A program made the translations under genes and the position numbers. A stretch of DNA of 64,000 bases, from contig OZ244172.1 in the NCBI GenBank assembly GCA_965216545.1, positions 3,654,763 to 3,718,762 on the forward strand. Reading direction: 5' to 3'. This DNA is from Bryobacterales bacterium. Lineage in GTDB: Bacteria > Acidobacteriota > Terriglobia > Bryobacterales > UBA6623. This document shows positions 1 through 10,119 of this stretch, in pieces; the stretch's first letter is position 1, and every line of letters begins with the position of its first letter. The notes below the pieces were generated by a model. It was not told where the DNA came from. It worked only from the letters and a program-made list of their open reading frames with translations, and made no database searches.

Positions 1-216
1 AAGCCTCGGGCGCCGCGCCCGGGGAGATACGAATGGGTCCCACCCCTCCTCGGCCCTGGCAAGGGCCTGGCTGCAACCGAGTCGCGCCTCGGCAGGCGCA
101 TTGGGGAGCTCAGCGCCGTCCCGGGTCCACGGATTCACGCGTAGGCCGTTCCCTACCGCGCGGCCTTGGGAGGTCTCTCGTGCTAGACGAACCCTGGAGA
201 CAGGACGCTCGGCCCG

Positions 217-1329
217 CTACGGCTTCTTCTTTACGTAGCTCGGATCCTGCACCGGCCCGCTCTTTGCCGGCTTGCGCACGTAGTTCGGATCGATCACCAC
301 ATCGGAGGCGTCCGCTTCGTCCTCGCCCGTCTGCGGGATCCTGCGAACGTTGAAGACGTCTGTTCCCAGTGGCAGATCGCTGAGCAACTCGTTGACCCGT
401 CCGTTGAGGGAGCCCAAGAACGCAATGAGATCCTTCCGCTCGGCGTCGTCGAGGTCGATCGGCTCGATCTCGGCCTCGAGCCCGGCGGGAGCGGAGCCGC
501 CTCGCTCGTAGTGGTCGAGCACGGCATCGATCGTCAGCAGGTCGCCGTGGTGCATGAAGGAATAGCGCCGCAGCACGTCGCGCAGGCTTTGCGTCTTGTA
601 TTTCGTACCCGGCGGGTTGTCGCCTTGGTTCTCCCTCACGCCCGTATAGTGCTTTTGATGATCGGTCAGCATCGGTCCGTGATGGCAGCCGATGCAGCCG
701 GCTTTGCCTTCAAACAGCGCCATGCCGCGCTTGGCCGCCTCGCTCAGCGCCGTCTCGTCGCCTTGCAAGTAACGGTCGAGGTCGCTGTCATAGGAGACCA
801 GCGTGCGCTCGTAGGACGAGATAGCCTTTGCGATCAGATCGAACGTGATCGTTTCCCCGGGAAACGCCGCCTCGAACATGCGCCGGTAGCGCGCGCGCGC
901 AGCGACGCGACGCGCTCCCTCGGCTGGATCGAGGCCCATCTCGAACGGGTTCTCGAGCGGCTTGGAGGCTTGGTCCTCGAGCGTTTTCTCGCGTCCGTCG
1001 AAGAACATCGACCGCTGCCAGCCGACGTTGAGCAGGGTGGGCGTCTTGCGCCGCAGCTCGGTCTCGTTGAGCCCCCAGCCGCGCGAGAAGCCGTCGGTGA
1101 AGTAGAGCTCCGGCTTGTGGCAGGTGGAGCAACTGCGCCGGAAGTTCCGCGAGAGCACGTCGTCGAAGAAGAGCTCCTTGCCGAGCGCGACTTTCTCCGC
1201 CGTGGGCGGGTTGTCTGGCGGAAACGGCGGCATGCCGCCGAGCGGCTCGAGCTTCGGTTCGCCCGCCATGAGCAAGGCCGCGCAGGCGGCGCCGGTCAAC
1301 AGGATCCGGGCAACGGCGAAAACTCCCAT
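217..1329 (-). CDS. di-haem cytochrome c peroxidase (CCP/MauG family)
   Basis: ORF 217..1395 carries two CxxCH haem motifs (CSTCH, CIGCH). An internal ATG at 1329 precedes a hydrophobic signal-like segment (MGVFAVARILLTGAACAALL). The start could instead be 1395. Confidence 0.85.
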   Translation of the reverse strand: MGVFAVARILLTGAACAALLMAGEPKLEPLGGMPPFPPDNPPTAEKVALGKELFFDDVLSRNFRRSCSTCHKPELYFTDGFSRGWGLNETELRRKTPTLLNVGWQRSMFFDGREKTLEDQASKPLENPFEMGLDPAEGARRVAARARYRRMFEAAFPGETITFDLIAKAISSYERTLVSYDSDLDRYLQGDETALSEAAKRGMALFEGKAGCIGCHHGPMLTDHQKHYTGVRENQGDNPPGTKYKTQSLRDVLRRYSFMHHGDLLTIDAVLDHYERGGSAPAGLEAEIEPIDLDDAERKDLIAFLGSLNGRVNELLSDLPLGTDVFNVRRIPQTGEDEADASDVVIDPNYVRKPAKSGPVQDPSYVKKKP

Positions 1330-1622
1330 GTTGGGCCTGAGTTTAGCACTGGTCGCGCTCGGCCGGCCATGCCCAGATCCGTTCGGTAAGGGCATAGCGC
1401 GGGCGGAGAAATGCCGAACAAGGCCTGGAGTTGGCGCGCGGGGTCGCGTGAGCGGTCGCGGGACAGCGTAGGCGGGGCGCTGGCGGGAGTCGTGCCGCGA
1501 TCAGACGCAGCTCAACCGTGGCCGCGGCGGCGGCGAGGCCCAGCCAGGCTCCCCAGTCCTTACCCACGGATAAGAGGCGGAGCGGTTGCATCGCGGGCGT
1601 CCGCGTGGCATGCTGATATGGC

Positions 1623-1637
1623 GAACAAAAAGCGAAT
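1623..1637 (+). promoter_or_regulatory. candidate SOS (LexA-type) operator upstream of imuA
   Basis: GAAC-N7-GAAT direct repeat (gaacaaaaagcgaat) ends 7 nt before the imuA ATG. It is one mismatch from the GAAC-N7-GAAC/GTTC-N7-GTTC box reported for Alphaproteobacteria and Acidobacterium capsulatum. Based on motif and position only. Confidence 0.3.
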
Positions 1638-1643
1638 ATCGAG

Positions 1644-2333
1644 ATGGCCGCCTCCGCCAAGCTTCAACAGCTCGAGACTTTGCTCCGCCAGCGCGGGCTT
1701 GGGCGTGCTTTGCCGACGGCGGACAAGCCTGTGTACAAGCCGCTGCCGACCGGCAGAGCGGAGGTCGACCGCCGTCTGGGCGGCGGGTTGCCGCGCGGGG
1801 CGATCAGCGAAGTTGTTGGCCCGGAGTCGTCGGGGCGGACGTCATTGTTGTTCTCGGCGCTAGCCCGGGCGACGCAAGCGGGTGAGGTGGCGGCTTACAT
1901 TGACGCGACCGATTGTTTGGATCCGCGCTCGGCGGAGCAGGCTGGCATCGTGCTGGAGCGGTTGCTGTGGGTGCGCTGCGACTCGCGGGAGAGGCCGCGC
2001 TACGAGCGCCTGCGCGAGCAGCCGGCGGATCAGGCTTGGCAGGCGGTGAACCTAGTCGCGGCGGCGGGCGGCTTCGGGCTGATCGTAGCAGACTTGGGCG
2101 GGCTCTCCCGCCGCAAGCTCGGCGAATGGCAGCGCCGGCCGTGGGTGCGGCTCAGGCAAGCGATCGAGCATACCGCGACCGCGCTGACGGTGCTGGCGGA
2201 GCGGCACGTGGCGCAGGGCGCGGCCACGTTCGGCCTAGGAGGGACAAGGGACGGTTTGGGGACAAGGGACAGGGGTTTGGGGACAAGGGACCGGGGACAA
2301 GGGATAAGAGGACGGTTGTTGGAGGTGGCCTGA
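1644..2333 (+). CDS. imuA: ImuA, RecA-like protein of the imuA-imuB-dnaE2 mutagenesis cassette
   Basis: Degenerate RecA Walker-A-like motif GPESSGRTSLL and synteny with imuB and dnaE2. The C-terminal ~30 aa (GTRDGLGTRDRGLGTRDRGQG...) are encoded by the heptamer array, so the native C-terminus may have been altered. Confidence 0.8.
   Translation: MAASAKLQQLETLLRQRGLGRALPTADKPVYKPLPTGRAEVDRRLGGGLPRGAISEVVGPESSGRTSLLFSALARATQAGEVAAYIDATDCLDPRSAEQAGIVLERLLWVRCDSRERPRYERLREQPADQAWQAVNLVAAAGGFGLIVADLGGLSRRKLGEWQRRPWVRLRQAIEHTATALTVLAERHVAQGAATFGLGGTRDGLGTRDRGLGTRDRGQGIRGRLLEVA
2241..2307 (+). repeat. G-rich heptanucleotide tandem array L1 (GGGACAA family)
   Basis: Seven phased units at 2259-2307: GGGACAA GGGACAG GGGTTTG GGGACAA GGGACCG GGGACAA GGGATAA. 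Two further units lie at 2241-2254 and a stray GACAAGGGA at 2342-2350. The array sits in the imuA 3' end. Confidence 0.9.
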
Positions 2334-2749
2334 TGCTTAGAGACAAGGGACGAGGAGCAGGAGCAGGGGAGAAGGTTCGGAGCTACCGGGATCTCAAGGT
2401 TTGGCAGAGGGCGATGGATTTGGTGGAGCAGAGCTATCGCTTGGCGGCAATGCTGCCCTCACACGAGCTGTATGGATTGGCAACCCAGATTCGCCGTGCT
2501 GCTGTTTCCGTTCCCGCCAACATTGCGGAGGGGAACGGACGCGAGCACGTTGGCGACTACCTGCATCACGTCTCCATCGCTCATGGCTCGCTCATGGAGT
2601 TGGAAACACATTTCCTCATTGCGATTCGTCTTACGTACCTCCAGCCTGATCAAATTGAGCCGGCTTTCGAATTGACTACCGAAGTCGGCCGCATGCTAGG
2701 TGGTCTTCGTAAGAGTCTGAAGACGAAACGAAGCTCCAGGGGGAGGTAG
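2333..2749 (+). CDS. four-helix-bundle protein, 23S rRNA intervening-sequence / Avd family (TIGR02436, PF05635-like), copy 1
   Basis: Family-typical sequence SYRDLKVWQRAMDLV...QIRRAAVSVPANIAEGNGR...GSLMELETH. The ATG overlaps the imuA stop (TGATG) and GGAGG lies at 2321-2325. It corresponds to the C-terminal 138 aa of track ORF 1913..2749. Confidence 0.85.
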   Translation: MLRDKGRGAGAGEKVRSYRDLKVWQRAMDLVEQSYRLAAMLPSHELYGLATQIRRAAVSVPANIAEGNGREHVGDYLHHVSIAHGSLMELETHFLIAIRLTYLQPDQIEPAFELTTEVGRMLGGLRKSLKTKRSSRGR

Positions 2750-2754
2750 CTTCC

Positions 2755-2783
2755 TTGTCCCTTGTCCCCGGTCCCTTGTCCCC
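2755..2783 (-). repeat. C-rich heptamer array R1, inverted copy of L1
   Basis: Four phased units TTGTCCC TTGTCCC CGGTCCC TTGTCCC. Positions 2758-2783 are the exact 26-nt reverse complement of 2279-2304. Confidence 0.9.
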
Positions 2784-4296
2784 AGAGGGACCCTTGCCGC
2801 TCTTTGCAGCTTTGTATGTCGCTGACTTCGCTGTTGCAGCGTTGATCCGCGGCGAAGCGTACAGCCCCGCTACCGGGGTGATCGAGGGCGAGCCGCCCAA
2901 TCAGTTCGTCTGTACGGCCGATGAGGCGGCCCGCGCCGGCGGCGTACAGATCGGCATGCCGCTGGCCGCGGCCACCGCACGTTTCGCCTATGTCACTCGG
3001 GGCGAGGATCTGCGCATCCTCGAGCGCGACCCGGCGGCCGAAGCCCGCGCGCAGCGTGACTTATTGCGAGCAGCCGAAAACGCCACCCCACGCTATGAGG
3101 ATTCCGCGCTGGGGCTGGCGACGCTCGACTTCAGCGGATTGCGTGAGCCGCATGTGGCGGCGCGCAAACTTTATACAGAGGCGGAGGCGCTGGGGTTCAC
3201 GCCTCAGCTTGGGGTTTCGCGCAACCGCTTCGTCGCATTATGCGCCGCGCGCACACAGCCAGGATTGACGCATGTCTACCCCGGAGAAGAGGCAGGCTTT
3301 CTCTCGGTCCAGGGGCTCGACGTGCTGCCAATGGAAGCAGCCGAGATCGAAACGCTCGCACGCTGGGGCGTCCGCACGGTCGGCGAGCTGGCGCGCTTCA
3401 GCGAGAACGACCTGACAGCGCGCTTCGGCGAACGCGGCGCGCGGTTGGCGCGACTGGCGCGTGGCGAAGAAGCGTCGGTGATTGAGGCCTACACCGCGCC
3501 GCTCGAGCTCGAGGAGCGCCAGGAGTTCGACTGGGAAGTCGGAGAGCTCGAGCCGTTGGCGTTTGCGCTCTCGGGGATGCTCGAGCGGCTGTGCTTGAAG
3601 CTGCAGGGTCACAACTTGGCGGCGGCGCGCGTGGAGACCAAGCTCGAGCTTGCGAGCGGGCGGTTGTTCGCTCGCAAGATCGATTTGCCGTATCCGCTGA
3701 CCGACCCGCGCACGCTGCTCAGACTGGTGCGGCTCGATCTCGATGCGCATCCCCCAGGCGACGCCATCGTGGCCGCCCGCGTCGCCGCCGCGCCCACCGA
3801 GCGGCGTCGCGTGCAGTTCTCGCTCTTCGCGCCTGCCGCGCCGAGCCCGGAGAAGCTGGCTGTGACGCTGGCGCGCCTCTCGGGCCTGGTGGGCGCCGAG
3901 CGCGTGGGCGCTCCGGTCGCGCCGGACACGCACAAGCCGGGAGCGGCGGCGTTGGCGCTGTTCGCACCATCGCAAAGGGACAAGGGACAAGGGACAAAGG
4001 GACAAGGGACAGGGGACAAGAGAGGCGGCTCGCGTGAAGAACGCATCTTCCGCGTCTTCCGTCCGCCCTGGCGCGCCAAGGTCGAGACCCAAGCGCACGA
4101 GCCGGCGCATCTGGAGTCGCTCGATGTCGCCGGCCCCATCGAATCCAGCTCCGGCCCCTGGCGTGTTTCCGGCGAGTGGTGGAGCCCGGAGGGCTGGCAA
4201 TACGAGGAATGGGATGTGCTGGTGCAGGGGCGTATGTATCGGGCTTGCTTTGATCGGTTGAGCCGGGAGTGGTTTGTCACGGGGGCGTACGATTAG
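2755..4296 (+). CDS. imuB: ImuB, Y-family-polymerase-like protein
   Basis: N-terminus LFAALYVADFAVAALIR, typical size, and position between imuA and dnaE2. The TTG start at 2755 lies inside the repeat (GGAGG at 2740-2744). An alternative TTG at 2794 would give MPLFAALYV. Confidence 0.8.
   Translation: MSLVPGPLSPEGPLPLFAALYVADFAVAALIRGEAYSPATGVIEGEPPNQFVCTADEAARAGGVQIGMPLAAATARFAYVTRGEDLRILERDPAAEARAQRDLLRAAENATPRYEDSALGLATLDFSGLREPHVAARKLYTEAEALGFTPQLGVSRNRFVALCAARTQPGLTHVYPGEEAGFLSVQGLDVLPMEAAEIETLARWGVRTVGELARFSENDLTARFGERGARLARLARGEEASVIEAYTAPLELEERQEFDWEVGELEPLAFALSGMLERLCLKLQGHNLAAARVETKLELASGRLFARKIDLPYPLTDPRTLLRLVRLDLDAHPPGDAIVAARVAAAPTERRRVQFSLFAPAAPSPEKLAVTLARLSGLVGAERVGAPVAPDTHKPGAAALALFAPSQRDKGQGTKGQGTGDKRGGSREERIFRVFRPPWRAKVETQAHEPAHLESLDVAGPIESSSGPWRVSGEWWSPEGWQYEEWDVLVQGRMYRACFDRLSREWFVTGAYD
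3977..4019 (+). repeat. GGGACAA heptamer array inside imuB (third copy of family 1)
   Basis: Six GGGACAA-type heptamers in tandem (five GGGACAA, one GGGACAG, with one extra A after the third unit), translated in frame as QRDKGQGTKGQGTGDKRG. Positions 3977-3992 are the exact complement of 2753-2768. Confidence 0.9.
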
Positions 4297-4298
4297 CG

Positions 4299-4347
4299 GG
4301 TGCTGGGGGCTAGGTGTTAGGTGCTAGGTGCTAGGTGCTAGGTGCTG
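4299..4347 (+). repeat. G-rich heptanucleotide tandem array L2 (GGTGCTA family)
   Basis: Seven phased units: GGTGCTG GGGGCTA GGTGTTA GGTGCTA GGTGCTA GGTGCTA GGTGCTG. The array starts 3 nt after the imuB stop. Confidence 0.9.
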
Positions 4348-4373
4348 GGCGTTGGCTGATACGGAGGATTGAA

Positions 4374-4724
4374 ATGATTCGGAGTTATCGCGATCTTCAT
4401 GTTTGGCAGCGGGGGATGGATCTTGTTCTTTGCTGCTACGGCTTAGCCAAGAAGCTTCCAAGCGATGAGCTTTACGGATTGACGAGTCAGATTCGCAGAG
4501 CCGCCGTTGCTATACCTGCCAACATCGCCGAGGGGCACGGCAGAGACCACATCGGCGACTACCTGCGCCATCTCTCGATCGCCTCTGGATCGCTCACAGA
4601 GCTGGAAACCCACATCCTGATCACCGAAAGACTCTCGGCTATCTCTCTGAAGCCGACACTTCGATCTTTCATACCCAAGCCACTGAGCTGGGCCGCATGC
4701 TCTCCACTCTGTCAAAGAAGTTGA
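4374..4724 (+). CDS. four-helix-bundle protein, IVS/Avd family, copy 2 (C-terminus disrupted by an apparent +2 frameshift)
   Basis: MIRSYRDLHVWQRGMDLV...QIRRAAVAIPANIAEGHGR...GSLTELETH, with GGAGGA at 4363-4368. After ...ITERL (4634) the family-like sequence GYLSEADTSIFHTQATELGRMLSTLSKKLKARR continues in another frame, 4637-4756. Confidence 0.8.
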   Translation: MIRSYRDLHVWQRGMDLVLCCYGLAKKLPSDELYGLTSQIRRAAVAIPANIAEGHGRDHIGDYLRHLSIASGSLTELETHILITERLSAISLKPTLRSFIPKPLSWAACSPLCQRS

Positions 4725-4746
4725 AGGCCCGAAGAACCTCTTCCCC

Positions 4747-4781
4747 CAGCACCTGACACCTAACACCCAGCACCTAGCACC
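4747..4781 (-). repeat. C-rich heptamer array R2, inverted copy of L2
   Basis: Five phased units CAGCACC TGACACC TAACACC CAGCACC TAGCACC. Positions 4766-4781 are the exact complement of 4334-4349. The array ends 6 nt before the dnaE2 ATG. Confidence 0.9.
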
Positions 4782-4787
4782 ATTTAA

Positions 4788-7700
4788 ATGACCGAAATCC
4801 ACGCAGCCTCCGGTTTCAGCTTCCTCGAAGGCGCCTCCGACCCCGAGGACCTCGTCGCCGAAGCCAAGCGCCTCGAATACGAAGCCGTCGCGCTTTGCGA
4901 TCGCGACTCCGTCTCCGGCGCGCCGCGCTTCTTCAAAGCCGCCAAGCAAGCGCGCATCAAAGCGTTGGTCGGCGCCGAAATCTCGCTCGACCAACCGGGC
5001 GTCAAAAAGGGCGTCCGCAACGCCGAGCTCGACCGCCGCCTCACCGTGCTGGTCGAGAACCGCCGCGGCTACCAGAACCTCTGTCGCCTGCTCACGCGCA
5101 TGAACCTGCGCGCCCCCAAGGGCGAAGGGCGCGTCACTTGGGACGACCTCGACGACTTCTCCTCCGGCCTCGTCGCCCTACTGCACGACCTGCGCGACGA
5201 GGACCCAGTACGCGGCATCTTCGGCTCGCGCAACGTCTACGTCGAGCTGCAACGCCACATGCGCCGCGAGCAGGAGCGCGACAACCAGGCGCGCATCGAG
5301 CTCGCTCGCCGCTACGGGCTGCCGCTGGTCGCCTCGAACGGCGTGCGCTACGCCACCGAGGCGCGCAAGCCGCTCTACGACGTCTTCACCTGCCTGCGCT
5401 ACAAGCGCAAGCTCGATACTGTCGGCCGCTTGCTCGACGCGAACGCCGAGCGCTACCTCAAGCCGCAACGGTCTCTCGAGTATCTCTTCCGCGATCTGCC
5501 CGAAGCGCTCGCCAATGCGAGTGAGCTTGGGCGCCGGCTCGACTTCACGCTCGGCAATCTCGGATACGAGTTCCCGAAGTATCCGTTGCCGCCCGGCGAG
5601 ACAAATACCTCGTTCCTGCGCAAGATCGCCCTGCGCGGCGCCGCCGAACGCTACCGCGATTCGCCACATCGCGAGAAGGCTCTGCGGCAGATCGACCACG
5701 AGCTCGCCGTCATCGAGCGACTCAACCTCGAAGGCTATTTCCTGATCGTGTGGGACATCGTCGAGTTCGCGCGCAAGAACGGCATTCTGTGCCAAGGCCG
5801 CGGCTCGGCGGCGAACTCGGCCGTATGCTACTCCTGCGGCATCACCGCCGTCGACCCGGTCGGCATGGAGCTGCTCTTCGAGAGGTTTCTCTCCGAGGAG
5901 CGCGGCGAGTGGCCCGACATCGACGTCGACTTGCCCTCGGGCGACCAGCGCGAGCAGGTGATCCAACACGTCTACCGCCGCTACGGCGAGCGTGGCGCCG
6001 GCATGACGGCCAACGTCATCACCTACCGCGGCAAGATGGCCGTGCGCGAGGCGGGCAAGGTGCTGGGCTTTCCGGAGGAGATGATTGCGCGCCTGTCGAA
6101 GTGTATCCACAGCTTCGAGTACACCGACGACAATGACAAGCTCGTCTCGCAGGCCGTCGCCGCCGGCTTCGACGCTTCGCACCCGCGCGTCGGCCACCTG
6201 TTGCGCACTTGCATGCAGATGCAGGGGCTGCCGCGGCACCTGGGCCAGCACTCGGGCGGAATGGTGATCTGCCAGGGCGATCTCGACGCCGTCGTGCCGC
6301 TCGAGAATGCGTCGATGCCCGGCCGCGTCGTCGTGCAGTGGGACAAGGAGGACTGCGCTGACCTCGGCGTCATCAAGGTCGACTTGCTCGGCCTCGGCAT
6401 GATGGCGGCGCTCGAGGAGAGCGTCGAGACCATCCGTTCGCGGGGCGGAGACTTCGACTTGGCGCGCATCCCGCCCGATGATCCCGCGACTTACCAGATG
6501 ATCCAGAAGGCGGACACGGTCGGCGTGTTCCAGATCGAGAGCCGCGCGCAAATGGCGACGCTGCCACGCATGCGGCCGGATCATTTCTACGATCTGGTCG
6601 TAGAGGTGGCCATCATCCGCCCCGGGCCGATCACGGGCAACATGGTGCACCCGTATCTGGCGCGGCGGCAGGGCAGGGAGCCGGTGACCTATCCGCACCC
6701 CTCGCTCGAGCCGGTGTTGAAGCGCACGCTCGGGGTGCCGCTGTTCCAGGAGCAGTTGTTGCGCGTGGCTATGGTGGCGGCGAACTTTACCGGCGGCGAG
6801 GCCGAAGAGCTGCGCCGGGCGATGGGCTTCAAGCGCTCGGTCGAGCGCATGGGCTCGATCGAGCGCAAGCTCCGTGAGGGCTTGGCCGAGAACGGCATCG
6901 AGGGCGAGGCGGCGGAGCAGATCGTACGCTCGATTACTTCGTTCGCACTGTATGGATTTCCGGAGTCGCACGCGGCGAGCTTCGCTTTGCTCGCCTACGC
7001 GAGCTCCTATTTGAAGTGCCACTACCCGGCGGAGTTTCTGACAGCGTTGCTCAACTGCCAGCCGATGGGCTTCTACTCGCCGGCCGTGCTCGTCAGAGAT
7101 GCGCAGCGGCACGGCGTGCGGGTGCGGCCGATCGACGTGGCGTTGTCAGGGGCTAGGTGTCAGGTGCTGGGCGCTGGGGAGATGCGGTTGGGGTTGCGGT
7201 TTGTCTCGGGGCTCAGGGCGGAGGCGGCGGAGCGCATTGTGGGGCTGCGGCCGTATCGCTCGATGGAAGACTTCGTGCGACGGACGCGCTTGGCGAAGAC
7301 GGAGCTGGACGTGCTGGCGGAGATTGGGGCGCTGAACTCGCTAGGAGAAGGCGTCCACCGGCGCGAGGCGTTGTGGCAGATCGAGAGGGCGTATCGCCCG
7401 GCGGGGCCGCTGTTCGAGTCCCAAGACGACCGGCTGCCCGAGCCGGGGCCGCTGGCCAAGATGATGCCGCTCGAGCGGCTCGACGCCGACTATCGCGGGG
7501 CGGGCCTGACGACGGGGCCGCACCCGATGCACTACCTGCGGCCGGCGCTAGCCGATCGCAACGTGCACAGCGCGCGCGACCTCGAGTCGATCGCCCACGG
7601 CCGCCGCGTGCGTGTGGCCGGCGCGGTCATCACGCGGCAGCGACCGGGCACGGCCAAGGGCTTCTGCTTCATCACGTTGGAGGATGAAACTGGAGTTTCG

Positions 7701-7877
7701 AATCTGATTCTCACCCCGGACGTGTTTCAGGAGCACCGGCTGGCCGTGCTGCAGGAGTCGTTCCTGATCGGCGAGGGGTCGCTACAGAAGGTCGACGGCA
7801 CGATCGCGGTGAAGACGGACTTCGTCGAGCCGATGGGGGCGATCGAGCTCGAGATGGAGTCGCATGATTTTCATTAG
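4788..7877 (+). CDS. dnaE2: error-prone DNA polymerase DnaE2 (Pol III alpha-like, ImuC)
   Basis: 1029 aa with an N-terminal PHP domain (HAASGFSFLEGAS) and Pol III alpha core motifs (GRGSAANSAVCY, PDIDVD, GMVI, FQIESR). Lies in synteny after imuA and imuB. Confidence 0.92.
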   Translation: MTEIHAASGFSFLEGASDPEDLVAEAKRLEYEAVALCDRDSVSGAPRFFKAAKQARIKALVGAEISLDQPGVKKGVRNAELDRRLTVLVENRRGYQNLCRLLTRMNLRAPKGEGRVTWDDLDDFSSGLVALLHDLRDEDPVRGIFGSRNVYVELQRHMRREQERDNQARIELARRYGLPLVASNGVRYATEARKPLYDVFTCLRYKRKLDTVGRLLDANAERYLKPQRSLEYLFRDLPEALANASELGRRLDFTLGNLGYEFPKYPLPPGETNTSFLRKIALRGAAERYRDSPHREKALRQIDHELAVIERLNLEGYFLIVWDIVEFARKNGILCQGRGSAANSAVCYSCGITAVDPVGMELLFERFLSEERGEWPDIDVDLPSGDQREQVIQHVYRRYGERGAGMTANVITYRGKMAVREAGKVLGFPEEMIARLSKCIHSFEYTDDNDKLVSQAVAAGFDASHPRVGHLLRTCMQMQGLPRHLGQHSGGMVICQGDLDAVVPLENASMPGRVVVQWDKEDCADLGVIKVDLLGLGMMAALEESVETIRSRGGDFDLARIPPDDPATYQMIQKADTVGVFQIESRAQMATLPRMRPDHFYDLVVEVAIIRPGPITGNMVHPYLARRQGREPVTYPHPSLEPVLKRTLGVPLFQEQLLRVAMVAANFTGGEAEELRRAMGFKRSVERMGSIERKLREGLAENGIEGEAAEQIVRSITSFALYGFPESHAASFALLAYASSYLKCHYPAEFLTALLNCQPMGFYSPAVLVRDAQRHGVRVRPIDVALSGARCQVLGAGEMRLGLRFVSGLRAEAAERIVGLRPYRSMEDFVRRTRLAKTELDVLAEIGALNSLGEGVHRREALWQIERAYRPAGPLFESQDDRLPEPGPLAKMMPLERLDADYRGAGLTTGPHPMHYLRPALADRNVHSARDLESIAHGRRVRVAGAVITRQRPGTAKGFCFITLEDETGVSNLILTPDVFQEHRLAVLQESFLIGEGSLQKVDGTIAVKTDFVEPMGAIELEMESHDFH
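7149..7176 (+). repeat. GGTGCTA-family heptamer array inside dnaE2 (third copy of family 2)
   Basis: Four phased units GGGGCTA GGTGTCA GGTGCTG GGCGCTG, translated as GARCQVLGAG. Positions 7154-7171 are the exact 18-nt complement of 4745-4762. Confidence 0.85.
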
Positions 7878-7890
7878 GCTCACGAAAAAG

Positions 7891-10119
7891 TCATGGTCCC
7901 TCGCCTCCCCGGCGCAAGGTGACTCCCTGGTCCTCGACTTCCACGCGGATTCTCTCGAACACGGCCGCCGCTTCTCCCGACTCCATCGACCCTGGGCTGT
8001 TCCACTCAACGACGCTCCCGCGGGCGTACAGCCTCAGCCTCTGGCTCAACGCCGCCGGCGATCGCAGGTCACACCCATCCAAGAGGATCGTCCAACCGCG
8101 ATCCATGGCCGTGCTCGTTTCGAGGGTCAATGGAACTGGACCGACACTTTGACGAGGCTCACACTCAGTACAGATCTTGCGCCATCTCACTTGGTCAGAT
8201 TCCGACCATAGTCGTCCGGGCGCACATCGCAGCGCTCGATGCAGAGCATTGCGCATGGAGCTGTCTGCCTCCCTCTCCAACCGAGTCCAGATCGACCCGC
8301 GCGTCGTATCGGATTCATGGCGGACCAAGGCTCGGGCGGCGTCCAAAGCCGCCTCCGGCGACGGATCGTCGAGCTGACGCAGCGCCAGAGCTTCCAACTG
8401 TGGGCTCCAGGCGACCCTCCCGATCGACGTCAGCAGCCGTCTCCAGCAACCGCGATTCTCCCGGCTACCCAGAGCCTTCTCGACCAGCGTCGCCCCTTCG
8501 GCCGGCCGCACCCGTACGAGATACGCCAGCAAGCTCTGCTCCAGGTTGCAAGGAGCCGGACTCACCGAGCGATAGATCGCCAGCGCCCTGTCCGACACCG
8601 CAGACGAAGCATAGCGCGCTAGAACCGCCGAGTCTCTGCTCGTAGCTCGTCTCTCCAATCTGGCCATTGTAGGCTCGTCGATCTCTGGATAGACGCCATC
8701 CGGCAACACCCTTGCCAGAAGTCGCAGGCTCGCCATTGAAAGCTCCTGCATCAGGTCCGCCAGAACGAGCGACCTGCCTTTGGCGGGATCGAGCTCCGCG
8801 ACGCGCTCCAGCATCGCGCTCCAAGCCAGCGTCTTGCGCAGCGCGGTCGGATCCAGAGAGGGCTTTGCCCGTAGCGCCGGCAAGACCTCGAGCAACGCCG
8901 GCAGGATGTCCGGTCCCCGCAGTCGCTCCCAGCGCCGGCCGTAAAGCCAACCCGTCTGTTCTTCGGTCGAAAGCGCCAGGAACTCCGCGGGCGTGGGCGC
9001 CGGGTCCTCCACCAGCGGACGCAGCGCTTTTGCTTCCTCGGGTAGATACCTCTCTATGATCCGAAAGTCCGCCTTGCGAGCCGCCGGGGTCTTGGTTGGC
9101 GCCAACCTCGCTAGCAAGCGTGCGAAATCCGTTGCGATTTCCTCACGACGCCCCTGGCGCATGCGGGCTTCGGCAATCGCAGCCTCGTCCACTTCCGCCG
9201 GCGCCCAGGGGAGGGTTGAAGGGAACTCTGAAGCGATCTCGTTTACTAGGAGCAAATGAAACAGGCTTCCAGGGAGGCTATAGCGCGGATCCTCGAGGTA
9301 ACGAAGCAGGCGAGCGCGCAGATAGCTACGCTGACCGGATGCTGCTAGCGCCAACGTGATCGCGCCGTCGTACTGGCCGCGCGCTATGCCGTGCGCGTCT
9401 AGCAAGGCGTCGACCGCCGTCGCCGTTCCGAGATACCGCAGTGCTTTCACAGCGCCTCGGACCTGCTCGTCGAGCTCCTGAGGCAGCGGCCGCGGCAGCG
9501 GCCACGGGTCATCGTAGGCTGCGGCTTTCGCCAGAGCAGCCGTCGCCGCGGCCATGACCACCGCGTCGGCTTGCTCGTCCCGCGGCAGAATCTCGAGATG
9601 GAGCATTCCGGATGCCGCCAGCCTTGGACCTGCTTGTCCCTCCGTCGGATCGACTAGACCGACGCGTTTCGAAACAACGAAGACCCGGTAGCGCCCCGGC
9701 CTGGCGAAACGAATCCACTCGTCGAGGTCCGCTTCAATCTCGACCGGCTCGATTCCCAATGTCGGGTAGCCTCGCAGTCCGCCCGCGGACCCTCCCGCTA
9801 CGCCGCTGCCGTAGTACCACTCCAACGGATCGGACGCCTCTGCCGATCTGTCCACGACGAATCGGTCGACGTGCAGCCGACCGCTGCGATCATAGCGGGC
9901 GCCGTTGACCCGGTAGGTCTCCGAGCGATCCGAGGCGAAGGCCAGGGTCACCGTGATCCGCTCGCCGATCCGGTAGGAAGTACGCGGCTCTGCAAAGCGG
10001 GCCTCAAATCGCAACCCAGGCAGGTTCGCGGACCGGAGAGCGGAATGCTCGTCGGAGAACGAGTCTGCGGCCGAGATGCTGCACACCGCAAGAAGCATCG
10101 CATAGAGCCGGGTGGTCAT
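7891..10119 (-). CDS. hypothetical secreted protein (742 aa), helical-repeat rich
   Basis: Long ORF with signal-like N-terminus MTTRLYAMLLAVCSISA and non-shadow amino-acid composition. I recognise no family. Confidence 0.6.
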   Translation of the reverse strand: MTTRLYAMLLAVCSISAADSFSDEHSALRSANLPGLRFEARFAEPRTSYRIGERITVTLAFASDRSETYRVNGARYDRSGRLHVDRFVVDRSAEASDPLEWYYGSGVAGGSAGGLRGYPTLGIEPVEIEADLDEWIRFARPGRYRVFVVSKRVGLVDPTEGQAGPRLAASGMLHLEILPRDEQADAVVMAAATAALAKAAAYDDPWPLPRPLPQELDEQVRGAVKALRYLGTATAVDALLDAHGIARGQYDGAITLALAASGQRSYLRARLLRYLEDPRYSLPGSLFHLLLVNEIASEFPSTLPWAPAEVDEAAIAEARMRQGRREEIATDFARLLARLAPTKTPAARKADFRIIERYLPEEAKALRPLVEDPAPTPAEFLALSTEEQTGWLYGRRWERLRGPDILPALLEVLPALRAKPSLDPTALRKTLAWSAMLERVAELDPAKGRSLVLADLMQELSMASLRLLARVLPDGVYPEIDEPTMARLERRATSRDSAVLARYASSAVSDRALAIYRSVSPAPCNLEQSLLAYLVRVRPAEGATLVEKALGSRENRGCWRRLLTSIGRVAWSPQLEALALRQLDDPSPEAALDAARALVRHESDTTRGSIWTRLEREADSSMRNALHRALRCAPGRLWSESDQVRWRKICTECEPRQSVGPVPLTLETSTAMDRGWTILLDGCDLRSPAALSQRLRLYARGSVVEWNSPGSMESGEAAAVFERIRVEVEDQGVTLRRGGEGP

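Follow-up and report, generated by a model that had tools for sequence, protein, structure and literature searches.

To our knowledge, the origin and function of the intervening sequences (IVSs) of 23S rRNA, and of the S23p proteins associated with them, have been an open question since about 1990. The IVS in the 23S rRNA of Coxiella burnetii is a 428-nt selfish element with a 28-bp terminal stem and an S23p open reading frame (ORF) in its loop, and its 5' end carries two or three tandem heptamers (GACAGAT) whose copy number varies among strains (PMC4990558). RNase III cuts this element at the first repeat, its GC content is 36% compared with 42.5% for the genome, and its S23p has been reported as probably not expressed (PMC4990558). 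Avd, which belongs to the same fold superfamily, scaffolds an error-prone reverse transcriptase on RNA (PDB 8UB7 and 4DWL; PMC10053308), and 23S_rRNA_IVP genes have been noted in cas loci, where no cassette architecture was described (PMC3936711). Heptameric repeats of unknown function have also been reported, including GGGAATC in Xanthomonas, GGGGA(C/T)T in Nostoc, and TAACTGA in Beggiatoaceae, Cyanobacteria and Bacteroidetes, with those of Xanthomonas forming 70-75 convergent inverted pairs that are potential stem-loops and mostly transcribed (PMC4692102, PMC4679880). Here, we describe two genes of the S23p family, 4HB-1 and 4HB-2 (for four-helix bundle, 4HB), which occupy the two junctions of an imuA-imuB-dnaE2 mutasome operon in a 64 kb stretch of contig OZ244172.1 from a Bryobacterales bacterium (hereafter the window).

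The two 4HB genes are likely to represent two independently acquired selfish cassettes of the IVS type that reside in the imuA-imuB-dnaE2 operon, and not mutagenesis factors. Each cassette is probably a promoter-less unit of ~480-550 nt in which a PF05635 ORF lies inside inverted tandem-heptamer arrays, with one such unit at each operon junction. The element is an IVS-type cassette in mRNA operons with a family-wide inverted-heptamer frame. The operon consists of five co-directional, tightly packed genes, namely imuA, 4HB-1, imuB, 4HB-2 and dnaE2, as identified by ORF listing and profile searches. These genes and the heptamer arrays, the latter detected with Tandem Repeats Finder (TRF) and by minimum free energy (MFE) folding, are listed below; SD denotes a Shine-Dalgarno sequence, and loci from other genomes are designated by L numbers.

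1644..2333, + strand: imuA-like RecA-fold gene (ORF translation; PF00154, 62.5 bits).
2241..2313, + strand: left arm of cassette 1, (GGGACAA)n (TRF period 7; MFE stem).
2333..2749, + strand: 4HB-1, 138 aa, PF05635/TIGR02436 (S23p / 23S rRNA IVS protein), its start overlapping the imuA stop (TGATG).
2749..2790, + strand: right arm of cassette 1, (CCTTGTC)n, the reverse complement of the left arm, holding SD-TAG-N5-TTG and the annotated imuB start at 2755.
2755..4296, + strand: imuB, Y-family polymerase-like (PF00817, 34.3 bits, cut-off 23.2; PF11799).
3975..4020, + strand: solo (GGGACAA)n array in the variable ImuB linker, in frame and encoding RDKGQGTKGQGTGDKRG (6.4 copies, 90% matches).
4299..4349, + strand: left arm of cassette 2, (GGTGCTA)n, starting 3 nt past the imuB stop (TRF; MFE stem).
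4374..4756, + strand: 4HB-2, a frameshifted PF05635 gene (annotated ORF end 4724, out of frame; profiles and alignment with the L003 ortholog).
4745..4781, + strand: right arm of cassette 2, (TAGCACC)-type, the reverse complement of the left arm, ending 6 nt short of the dnaE2 ATG.
4788..7877, + strand: dnaE2 (imuC), error-prone C-family polymerase (NF004225 'error-prone DNA polymerase', 1237 bits, cut-off 939).

Both 4HB ORFs are bracketed by inverted tandem-heptamer arrays, a feature absent from the initial annotation, which had reported the five ORFs at the same coordinates as found here. In cassette 1, positions 2267-2308 pair with 2749-2790 to form a stem of ~40 bp (MFE -252.8 kcal/mol, z=-4.05), and in cassette 2, positions ~4299-4336 pair with ~4745-4781 to form a stem of ~37 bp (MFE -200.5 kcal/mol, z=-5.26). 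The pattern GGGACAAGGGAC has 11 matches against 0.24 expected and GGTGCTAGGTGCT has 12 against 1.12, and all five substantial period-7 arrays detected by TRF in the 64 kb window lie inside the operon. The cassettes measure ~545 and 483 nt, and the GC content of their interiors (0.564 and 0.544) is 11-15 points lower than that of imuA (0.707), imuB (0.677) and dnaE2 (0.666).

Cassette 2 fills the gap between the imuB stop and the dnaE2 start almost exactly. Cassette 1 is interleaved with host coding sequence, with the imuA tail in its left arm and the annotated imuB start in its right arm: the final ~30 codons of imuA (GLGGTRDGLGTRDRGLGTRDRGQGIRG...; tail GLGTRDRGLGTRDRGQG) are encoded by the left heptamer arm, and the initial ~13 codons of the annotated imuB ORF, which begins with TTG at 2755, by the right arm. 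An alternative in-frame TTG at 2794 matches the start position of relatives in an alignment of 28 ImuB sequences. The TGATG overlap (2331-2335) and the GGAGG sequence (2321-2325) between imuA and 4HB-1 both read as originally annotated, and the SD-stop-N5-TTG coupling arrangement is also present in L003 and L001, where the arms are built from the same heptamers in copy numbers unlike those of the window. The insertion of cassette 1 is not a simple block, since the conserved 3' end of imuA and the SD are located downstream of its left arm. The solo tract in the ImuB linker has the same unit as the arms of cassette 1 and is inverted relative to the right arm located 1.2 kb upstream; the tract recurs in L003 and L130, and L004 has a degenerate version of it.

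The same architecture is widespread around 4HB genes elsewhere. In a 4HB-centred metagenome scan covering 80 loci out of more than 591 candidates, 60 of the 75 testable loci carried a flanking inverted repeat (score >=36), with a period of exactly 7 in 59 of these, compared with none of 132 control pseudo-cassettes shifted by 1.5-2.5 kb at the same loci. The heptamers vary by locus (GGTGTCA, GATTCCA, GGGGTCC, GAGTGGC, AGATGTC, GGCGACG and others), and the sense strand of the 5' arms is rich in G (43%, with C at 16%). Family-wide medians are 498 nt for the cassette and 34.5 nt for the arm, and the GC content of the cassette interior was below that of its surroundings in 37 of 38 cases. According to a crude GC-frame gene caller, which makes these numbers approximate, 36 of 43 cassettes have a co-directional neighbour upstream; on the downstream side, 12 neighbours are co-directional and 20 opposed.

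None of the 80 metagenome loci has ImuA, ImuB or DnaE2 within 4 kb. Pfam matches of 71 flanking ORFs indicate diverse housekeeping functions, including MacB/FtsX (7), NuoC (5), PEPCK (3), YchF (3), tRNA synthetases and others, with no enrichment of repair or mutagenesis genes among them, and the closest family members (60-75% identical) adjoin transporters, nuo genes and tRNA synthetases. The mean column identity of 25 4HB homologs from unrelated contigs is 61%. Gene contexts encountered in the survey include MacB-MacB-4HB and polA-4HB-ruvA-ruvB; in the latter case (L135, 1256-6032), a 4HB cassette of 71% identity, its arms made of (AGGTGTC)n, lies co-directionally between polA and ruvA-ruvB, a single instance that may be due to chance.

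The flanked-4HB architecture also holds in named genomes of two further phyla. Plasmid pANA02 of Anabaena sp. 90 (L139, 1280-1971) carries the order cas6-4HB-cas4 in a type I-D CRISPR-Cas operon, with (AGGTGAC)n/(GTCACCT)n arms and a left array of ~130 nt, which suggests cassette hitchhiking as the reason why 23S_rRNA_IVP genes have been reported in cas loci (PMC3936711). In addition, a Calothrix plasmid harbors a flanked 4HB gene with (GGGTGTA)n arms, and plasmid 1 of Gemmatirosa kalamazoonensis (L141, 1327-1888) harbors one with arms of 8-nt units (GGGCAGGA)n, so the arm period is not strictly fixed. Around cassettes at unrelated loci, 43 extra arrays were counted in ~200 kb, ORF-less inverted pairs included. 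One such pair (AAGGATG / ATCCTTC) was observed in L086 (6683-6870), with its arrays ~120 nt apart, and L050 (3907-4395 and 5812-6157) contains two 4HB cassettes 1.5 kb apart with different arm heptamers.

Related imu operons mostly lack 4HB genes. An imuB-centred scan of GTDB species representatives yielded 46 loci, all from Bryobacterales, and a 4HB gene was found within 6 kb in only one of them (L004); the remaining 45 have contiguous imuA-imuB-dnaE2 genes or other insertions. The nearest homologs of 4HB-1 are positional orthologs, with the gene order imuA-4HB-imuB-4HB-dnaE2 in L003 and imuA-4HB-imuB without an adjoining dnaE2 in L001, L002 and L004. In these three metagenome-assembled genomes, a PQQ-repeat gene follows imuB instead of dnaE2 (~9905-10000 in L001), which leaves their mutasome operon split or incomplete. 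L130, a close relative that shares the synteny of the window (ImuB 80%), has neither cassette, and its imuB-dnaE2 spacer is 63 nt long and repeat-free. L132 (ImuB 64%) carries a 4HB gene with (GGGACCA)n arms at the imuA|imuB junction, and its sister L133 (ImuB 83% to L132) has a plain ATGA overlap of imuA and imuB. The existence of these empty sites in L133 and L130 means that the operon runs without a cassette. In L130, the stretch 5745-6000, which is the site of cassette 1 in relatives, contains a relic, GGGGACAAGGGAG, at the imuA tail and an unrelated reverse-strand ORF of ~55 aa (VQSSAPKDQKPVPLRKVLLTEDEADLILALRR...) without a Pfam match in the imuA-imuB gap.

In a neighbour-joining tree of ImuB, cassette 1 is present in two sister clades, and the 4HB protein of L132 is the nearest outgroup of the 4HB-1 orthologs, with 70% identity compared with a family background of 66%. 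With L132 included, this distribution fits one old insertion followed by losses, and sequence identities of 70% versus 66% would be compatible with two gains as well. Cassette 1 is old, predating the split of the window lineage, L003 and L004, and possibly that of L132. Cassette 2, which is limited to the window and L003, is younger, and the copy described here is in decay. The window and L003 copies of 4HB-2 (93% identical) group apart from 4HB-1, with their nearest other relatives at 63-68% identity. In the window, 4HB-1 and 4HB-2 are 71% identical over the initial 89 residues, and the proteins at the two positions in L003 are 61% identical over about 125 residues. Since this mutual identity lies at the level of the family background and the arm heptamers differ, the two cassettes were acquired independently. 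The possibility that 4HB-2 is a tandem duplicate of 4HB-1 was considered and ruled out by the family-background identity, the different clades and the different arm heptamers.

These low-GC stem-ORF-stem units, with differing heptamers and identity at the level of the family background, support one of two suggestions made in the initial annotation, namely that an IVS-like selfish cassette had colonised the operon twice. The same annotation held that the association would be incidental if similarly flanked paralogs occurred at dozens of unrelated loci of this genome and related imu operons lacked them. Across genomes, such paralogs were indeed found at numerous unrelated loci and were missing from related imu operons; for the source genome, the count covers the 64 kb window, in which the two genes described here are the only 4HB genes.

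Profile searches confirmed that both small ORFs belong to the PF05635/TIGR02436 family, with scores above the curated thresholds. 4HB-1 matched PF05635 with E=1.7e-35 and 121.8 bits (cut-off 33.8) and TIGR02436 with 118.5 bits (cut-off 24), and 4HB-2 matched PF05635 with E=7.8e-30 and 103.7 bits and TIGR02436 with 97.4 bits, both matches being truncated at profile position 86-87 (86 of the 106 positions of PF05635). Compared with the L003 ortholog, which is intact at 124 aa (93% amino acid identity), 4HB-2 has a 2-nt insertion near 4631-4633, and the shifted frame does run to 4756, the frame-corrected end proposed earlier. The AlphaFold2 model of 4HB-1 (pLDDT 89.7) comprises four helices (18-38, 43-67, 73-99 and 105-137); as mapped on this model, the insertion is predicted to remove helix 4 from 4HB-2, making this gene a probable pseudogene, barring a sequencing error at this position.

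Using Foldseek, the best PDB match of the 4HB-1 model was 2GSC (Xcc0516; target TM-score 0.90, rmsd 0.7, 44% identity), and the family profile matched 2GSC with E=1.9e-30. The 4HB-1 fold corresponds to 2GSC and 2RLD, with Avd more distant: the Avd structures 8UB7/4DWL were matched with a Foldseek probability of 1.0 and a target TM-score of 0.79-0.88 at 17-18% identity. 4HB-1 scored 40.1 bits against the Avd equivalog NF033474 (cut-off 80) and 25.7 bits against bAvd PF22296 (cut-off 40), and 4HB-2 matched neither model. The dN/dS of 4HB-1 is 0.115-0.133, compared with 0.07-0.18 for ImuA and 0.09-0.13 for ImuB across the same ortholog pairs, and on these sequence comparisons the 4HB-1 protein is under purifying selection.

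As selfish cassettes, these units would be transcribed by read-through from the operon promoter, and their arms would pair in the transcript into stems of ~37-40 bp, probable RNase III substrates by analogy with 23S rRNA IVSs. The 4HB ORFs would be translated by coupling, via the TGATG overlap with imuA and via SD-TAG-N5-TTG into imuB. Owing to this presumed translational coupling through 4HB-1, imuB and dnaE2 would still be expressed, and the insertion would be both tolerated and hard to lose. The 4HB pentamer would serve the element and not the mutasome, with structured nucleic acid as its probable ligand, as in the case of the related Avd.

Several points weigh against this interpretation. 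The RNA stem and its cleavage by RNase III are steps modelled on the rRNA IVSs, and the arm mismatches on the sense strand comprise 87 G.U and 102 A.C, giving no G.U excess; selection on the stem at the RNA level, as opposed to DNA complementarity, is therefore not demonstrated, and an RNA stem is neither supported nor excluded by these counts. Mobility of the cassettes is presumed, and no target-site duplications are recognisable between filled and empty sites (L132/L133; window/L130). Any estimate of the odds of two chance landings in one operon would rest on a 4HB count that covers the 64 kb window. Furthermore, cassette 1 has been kept at one junction while ImuB diverged to 81-85% identity, perhaps to 64%, and 4HB-1 is constrained like ImuA and ImuB, which is also expected of a domesticated function. 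The homolog between polA and ruvAB represents a second DNA-repair context, although this single case may be chance. Finally, heptamer arrays are concentrated in imu operons at ~40 times the density of the flanking sequence, and plain hitchhiking does not predict such a density.

This concentration was observed with TRF across 50 Bryobacterales loci (L003, L004-L049, L130, L132 and L133), in which 60 period-7 arrays occupy the imuA-dnaE2 spans (together 285 kb) compared with 2 in the 381 kb of flanking sequence; arrays were present inside the span at 18 loci and in the flanks at 2. The binomial P value for arrays in imu spans is 5e-20, which overstates independence because orthologous arrays are counted repeatedly through shared ancestry; the number of independent array positions is estimated at at least about 15. 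Most array-bearing imu loci lack a 4HB gene, and at least five different heptamer units are involved. In the subclade L030-L047, in-frame, sense-oriented arrays of a single unit (ACGGCTC or TCACGAA) number up to eight across imuA, imuB and dnaE2, and GGGACAA arrays recur in the distant operons of L006, L034, L037, L041, L130 and the window. In-frame composite insertions of ~400-500 nt, consisting of short palindromic hairpin modules (e.g. GACCGGCAYTCCTGCCG), were also observed in L039 (5560-6060, 6960-7500, 11080-11520 and 4660-4910), and likewise in L034, L037, L038, L040, L041 and L047, at five or more positions of imuA, imuB and dnaE2. These insertions have a degenerate GGGACAA-like tract at the start and an (ACGGCTC)n array at the 3' end, give rise to ImuB proteins of 700-800 aa, and recall the Rickettsia palindromic elements.

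Because arrays also cluster at unrelated 4HB loci, local spread is part of the explanation for the clustering. However, local spread does not account for the repeated seeding of the imu operon by different units, which keeps a link between the repeat system and the mutasome in play at low probability. In its broadest form, which we regard as unlikely, such a link would mean that heptamer arrays and PF05635 proteins make up a widespread, undescribed repeat-propagating system, loosely comparable to REP/RAYT, that takes the form of 4HB cassettes, ORF-less pairs and solo arrays and has the Bryobacterales mutasome operon as a preferred site. If so, the 4HB genes of the window would represent autonomous copies of the material that has invaded imuA, imuB and dnaE2 of related lineages, and the preference for this operon could reflect frameshift-prone mutasome switches, scars of the mutasome's own error-prone synthesis on a damage-induced locus, or targeting by the element. 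The concentration of arrays in an error-prone polymerase operon is thus a specific puzzle that is testable on existing genomes.

Another explanation accepts a selfish origin and adds domestication as a post-transcriptional control, in which the stem with its RNase III cleavage and the obligatory coupling through 4HB-1 gate ImuB and DnaE2 after SOS induction. Such a role would agree with the continued presence of cassette 1 between imuA and imuB in the window, in L003 and L004 and possibly in L132, with the conservation of TGATG and SD-TAG-N5-TTG and an imuB start within the right arm, and with a 4HB-1 dN/dS (0.12-0.13) comparable to that of ImuA and ImuB. It is nevertheless unlikely, since retention can also be explained by the difficulty of removing an insert that carries the imuB start, and L130 and L133 run the operon without a cassette, the latter with a plain ATGA overlap. 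The 45 of 46 related operons without a 4HB gene and the broken 4HB-2 of this genome point in the same direction, and the presence of cassettes in many unrelated operons implies that any regulatory effect would be generic and not specific to imu.

A slip of one heptamer unit shifts the reading frame, and the arrays might accordingly be contingency tracts that render the mutasome phase-variable, with the 4HB cassettes as one carrier. We consider this improbable. The arrays do lie within the coding frames of imuA, imuB and dnaE2, and their copy number differs between orthologs, but the host frame stays open across the array in nearly all cases, an array-linked OFF allele was not identified, and the frame changes in imuA and imuB of L047 are at no detected array. 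The arrays are also short (3-10 units) and imperfect, and their number per operon would make reversion unlikely. The bias towards imu operons (60 versus 2 arrays and 18 versus 2 loci, P=5e-20, at least five units), including the confinement of the five substantial arrays of the 64 kb window to its operon, would suit a switch; however, the P value is inflated by the repeated counting of orthologous arrays, and the array clusters around unrelated 4HB cassettes (43 extra in ~200 kb) indicate that local spread may suffice without any phenotype.

The main hypothesis of the initial annotation, a new mutagenesis system in which the 4HB proteins act as Avd-like accessory or targeting subunits that bind ImuB/DnaE2 and modulate error-prone synthesis, is very improbable, and the censuses have gone most of the way towards refuting it. 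In its favour, the 4HB genes share the direction of the imu genes and appear to be coupled to them in translation, their fold family includes Avd with its scaffolding role for an error-prone reverse transcriptase (PMC10053308), cassette 1 is long-lived, and one homolog sits between polA and ruvAB. Against it, 45 of 46 imu operons and all 80 4HB loci lack the association, L130 lacks both cassettes, L004 has 4HB-1 without an adjacent dnaE2, 4HB-2 is frameshifted, the Avd profile scores and identities given above are low (NF033474, 40.1 versus 80; PF22296, 25.7 versus 40; 17-18%), and the closest homologs (60-75%) adjoin transporters, nuo genes and tRNA synthetases. The selfish-cassette interpretation is favoured over an accessory role because the repeats are family-wide, 45 of 46 imu operons are free of 4HB genes, and 4HB-2 is both frameshifted and of independent origin.

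The host operon itself has the composition of a mutasome locus, with a DnaE2-type polymerase and, upstream in the same operon, ImuB and a RecA-like ImuA. ImuA scored 44.9 bits against the NCBIfam model NF033429, under its cut-off of 150, and several ImuB homologs are labelled 'protein ImuB' by JGI. DnaE2 has Pfam matches to the PHP, DNA_pol3_alpha, finger and HHH_6 domains and is 93% identical to its L003 ortholog, with a dN/dS of 0.07. The outer neighbours of the operon encode a cytochrome c peroxidase, a hypothetical protein and an NHL-repeat protein. A further feature lies directly upstream of imuA:

1586..1636, + strand: conserved upstream block with TTGCAT (1586-1591), TGATAT (1614-1619) and the direct repeat GCGAACAAAAAGCGAA (1621-1636).

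The repeat GCGAACAAAAAGCGAA has the form GAAC-N7-GAAT and is located between a putative -10 element and the imuA start, and the block is conserved in an alignment of five lineages (window, L003, L001, L130 and L132). It is one mismatch from the GTTC-N7-GTTC type, which we take to be the LexA box of Acidobacterium and Alphaproteobacteria and which may not be the box of this order. With one mismatch allowed, the GAAC-N7-GAAT-type pattern was found 50 times window-wide against 47 expected; because it is unenriched, the support for the block comes from its position and conservation and not from motif counts. The block is the presumed site from which the operon is driven, the repeat at 1621-1636 is a candidate LexA operator for this order, and the imu operon may be LexA-controlled. 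Within 1300-8300, no consensus sigma-70 promoter was matched and terminator-like sites occurred at chance level, with no T-runs trailing the cassette stems. An Rfam scan of 1-9000 at E<=1 returned no known RNA family, and a PADLOC scan of 4HB-1 and ImuA matched no defence-system model.

Collectively, these results remove a false lead, in that Avd-like genes in a mutasome operon are best regarded as passengers and not as agents of targeted mutagenesis, with the same probably applying to the 23S_rRNA_IVP genes of cas operons. They also allow a general definition of the IVS as an ORF in inverted arrays of 7-nt (rarely 8-nt) units, ~500 nt long and GC-poor, typically located just downstream of a co-directional gene, present in at least three phyla and found well outside rRNA. 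The orphan heptamers of Xanthomonas and Cyanobacteria would thereby be tied to a protein family for the first time, a link that we put forward as a hypothesis. Searches of the available literature, which was incomplete for subscription journals, turned up neither a connection between PF05635 genes and inverted heptamer arrays nor one between imu genes and heptamer repeats.

Among the known systems, the stand-alone TIGR02436 genes (Xcc0516, 2GSC; BT_0352, 2RLD; and the cas-locus 23S_rRNA_IVP) belong to the same family as 4HB-1; the papers searched on these genes treat the protein or the genes around it and do not describe a cassette. Avd of the diversity-generating retroelements is a small, basic protein of the same four-helix-bundle fold superfamily and likewise partners an error-prone polymerase in its own system; it differs in its 17-18% identity and in the scores below the Avd cut-offs, and the window 4HB genes adjoin imuA, imuB and dnaE2 instead of a reverse transcriptase, TR/VR repeats not having been specifically searched for. 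We know of no Avd gene that is bracketed by inverted heptamer arrays. The orphan heptamer repeats share the 7-nt tandem arrays, often G-rich, whereas the papers on them draw no link to 4HB genes. REP/REPIN-RAYT and the Rickettsia palindromic elements offer an analogy, since a small gene lies between inverted copies of a short repeat and ORF-less pairs and solo copies also occur, and the in-frame repeat insertions inside coding genes of imu relatives extend the likeness. Unlike RAYTs, however, the 4HB proteins have no recognisable transposase or nuclease fold, their tandem arrays differ by locus, and their mobility is putative.

The closest counterparts are the rRNA IVSs with an S23p ORF, as found in Leptospira and Coxiella burnetii. 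These differ from the window cassettes in residing in an rRNA helix instead of a protein-coding operon; in addition, the arms in the window overlap the coding sequence of host genes at the tail of imuA and at the annotated start of imuB, and the ORF appears from its sequence context to be coupled to host genes and is under purifying selection. The likenesses comprise a PF05635 ORF, a similar size (428 nt compared with 483 and ~545 nt here and a family median of 498 nt), terminal inverted repeats forming a stem of ~28-40 bp with the ORF in the loop, and tandem heptamers of variable copy number in the arms, detected here by TRF and with a precedent in Coxiella. Both kinds of element also have a GC content below that of the host (by ~6-7 points in Coxiella and the metagenome cassettes and by 11-15 points here), and both show a sporadic distribution followed by vertical persistence. 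Lying between protein-coding genes and matching no Rfam family within 1-9000, the window cassettes are thus not rRNA IVSs but are IVS-like in their anatomy.

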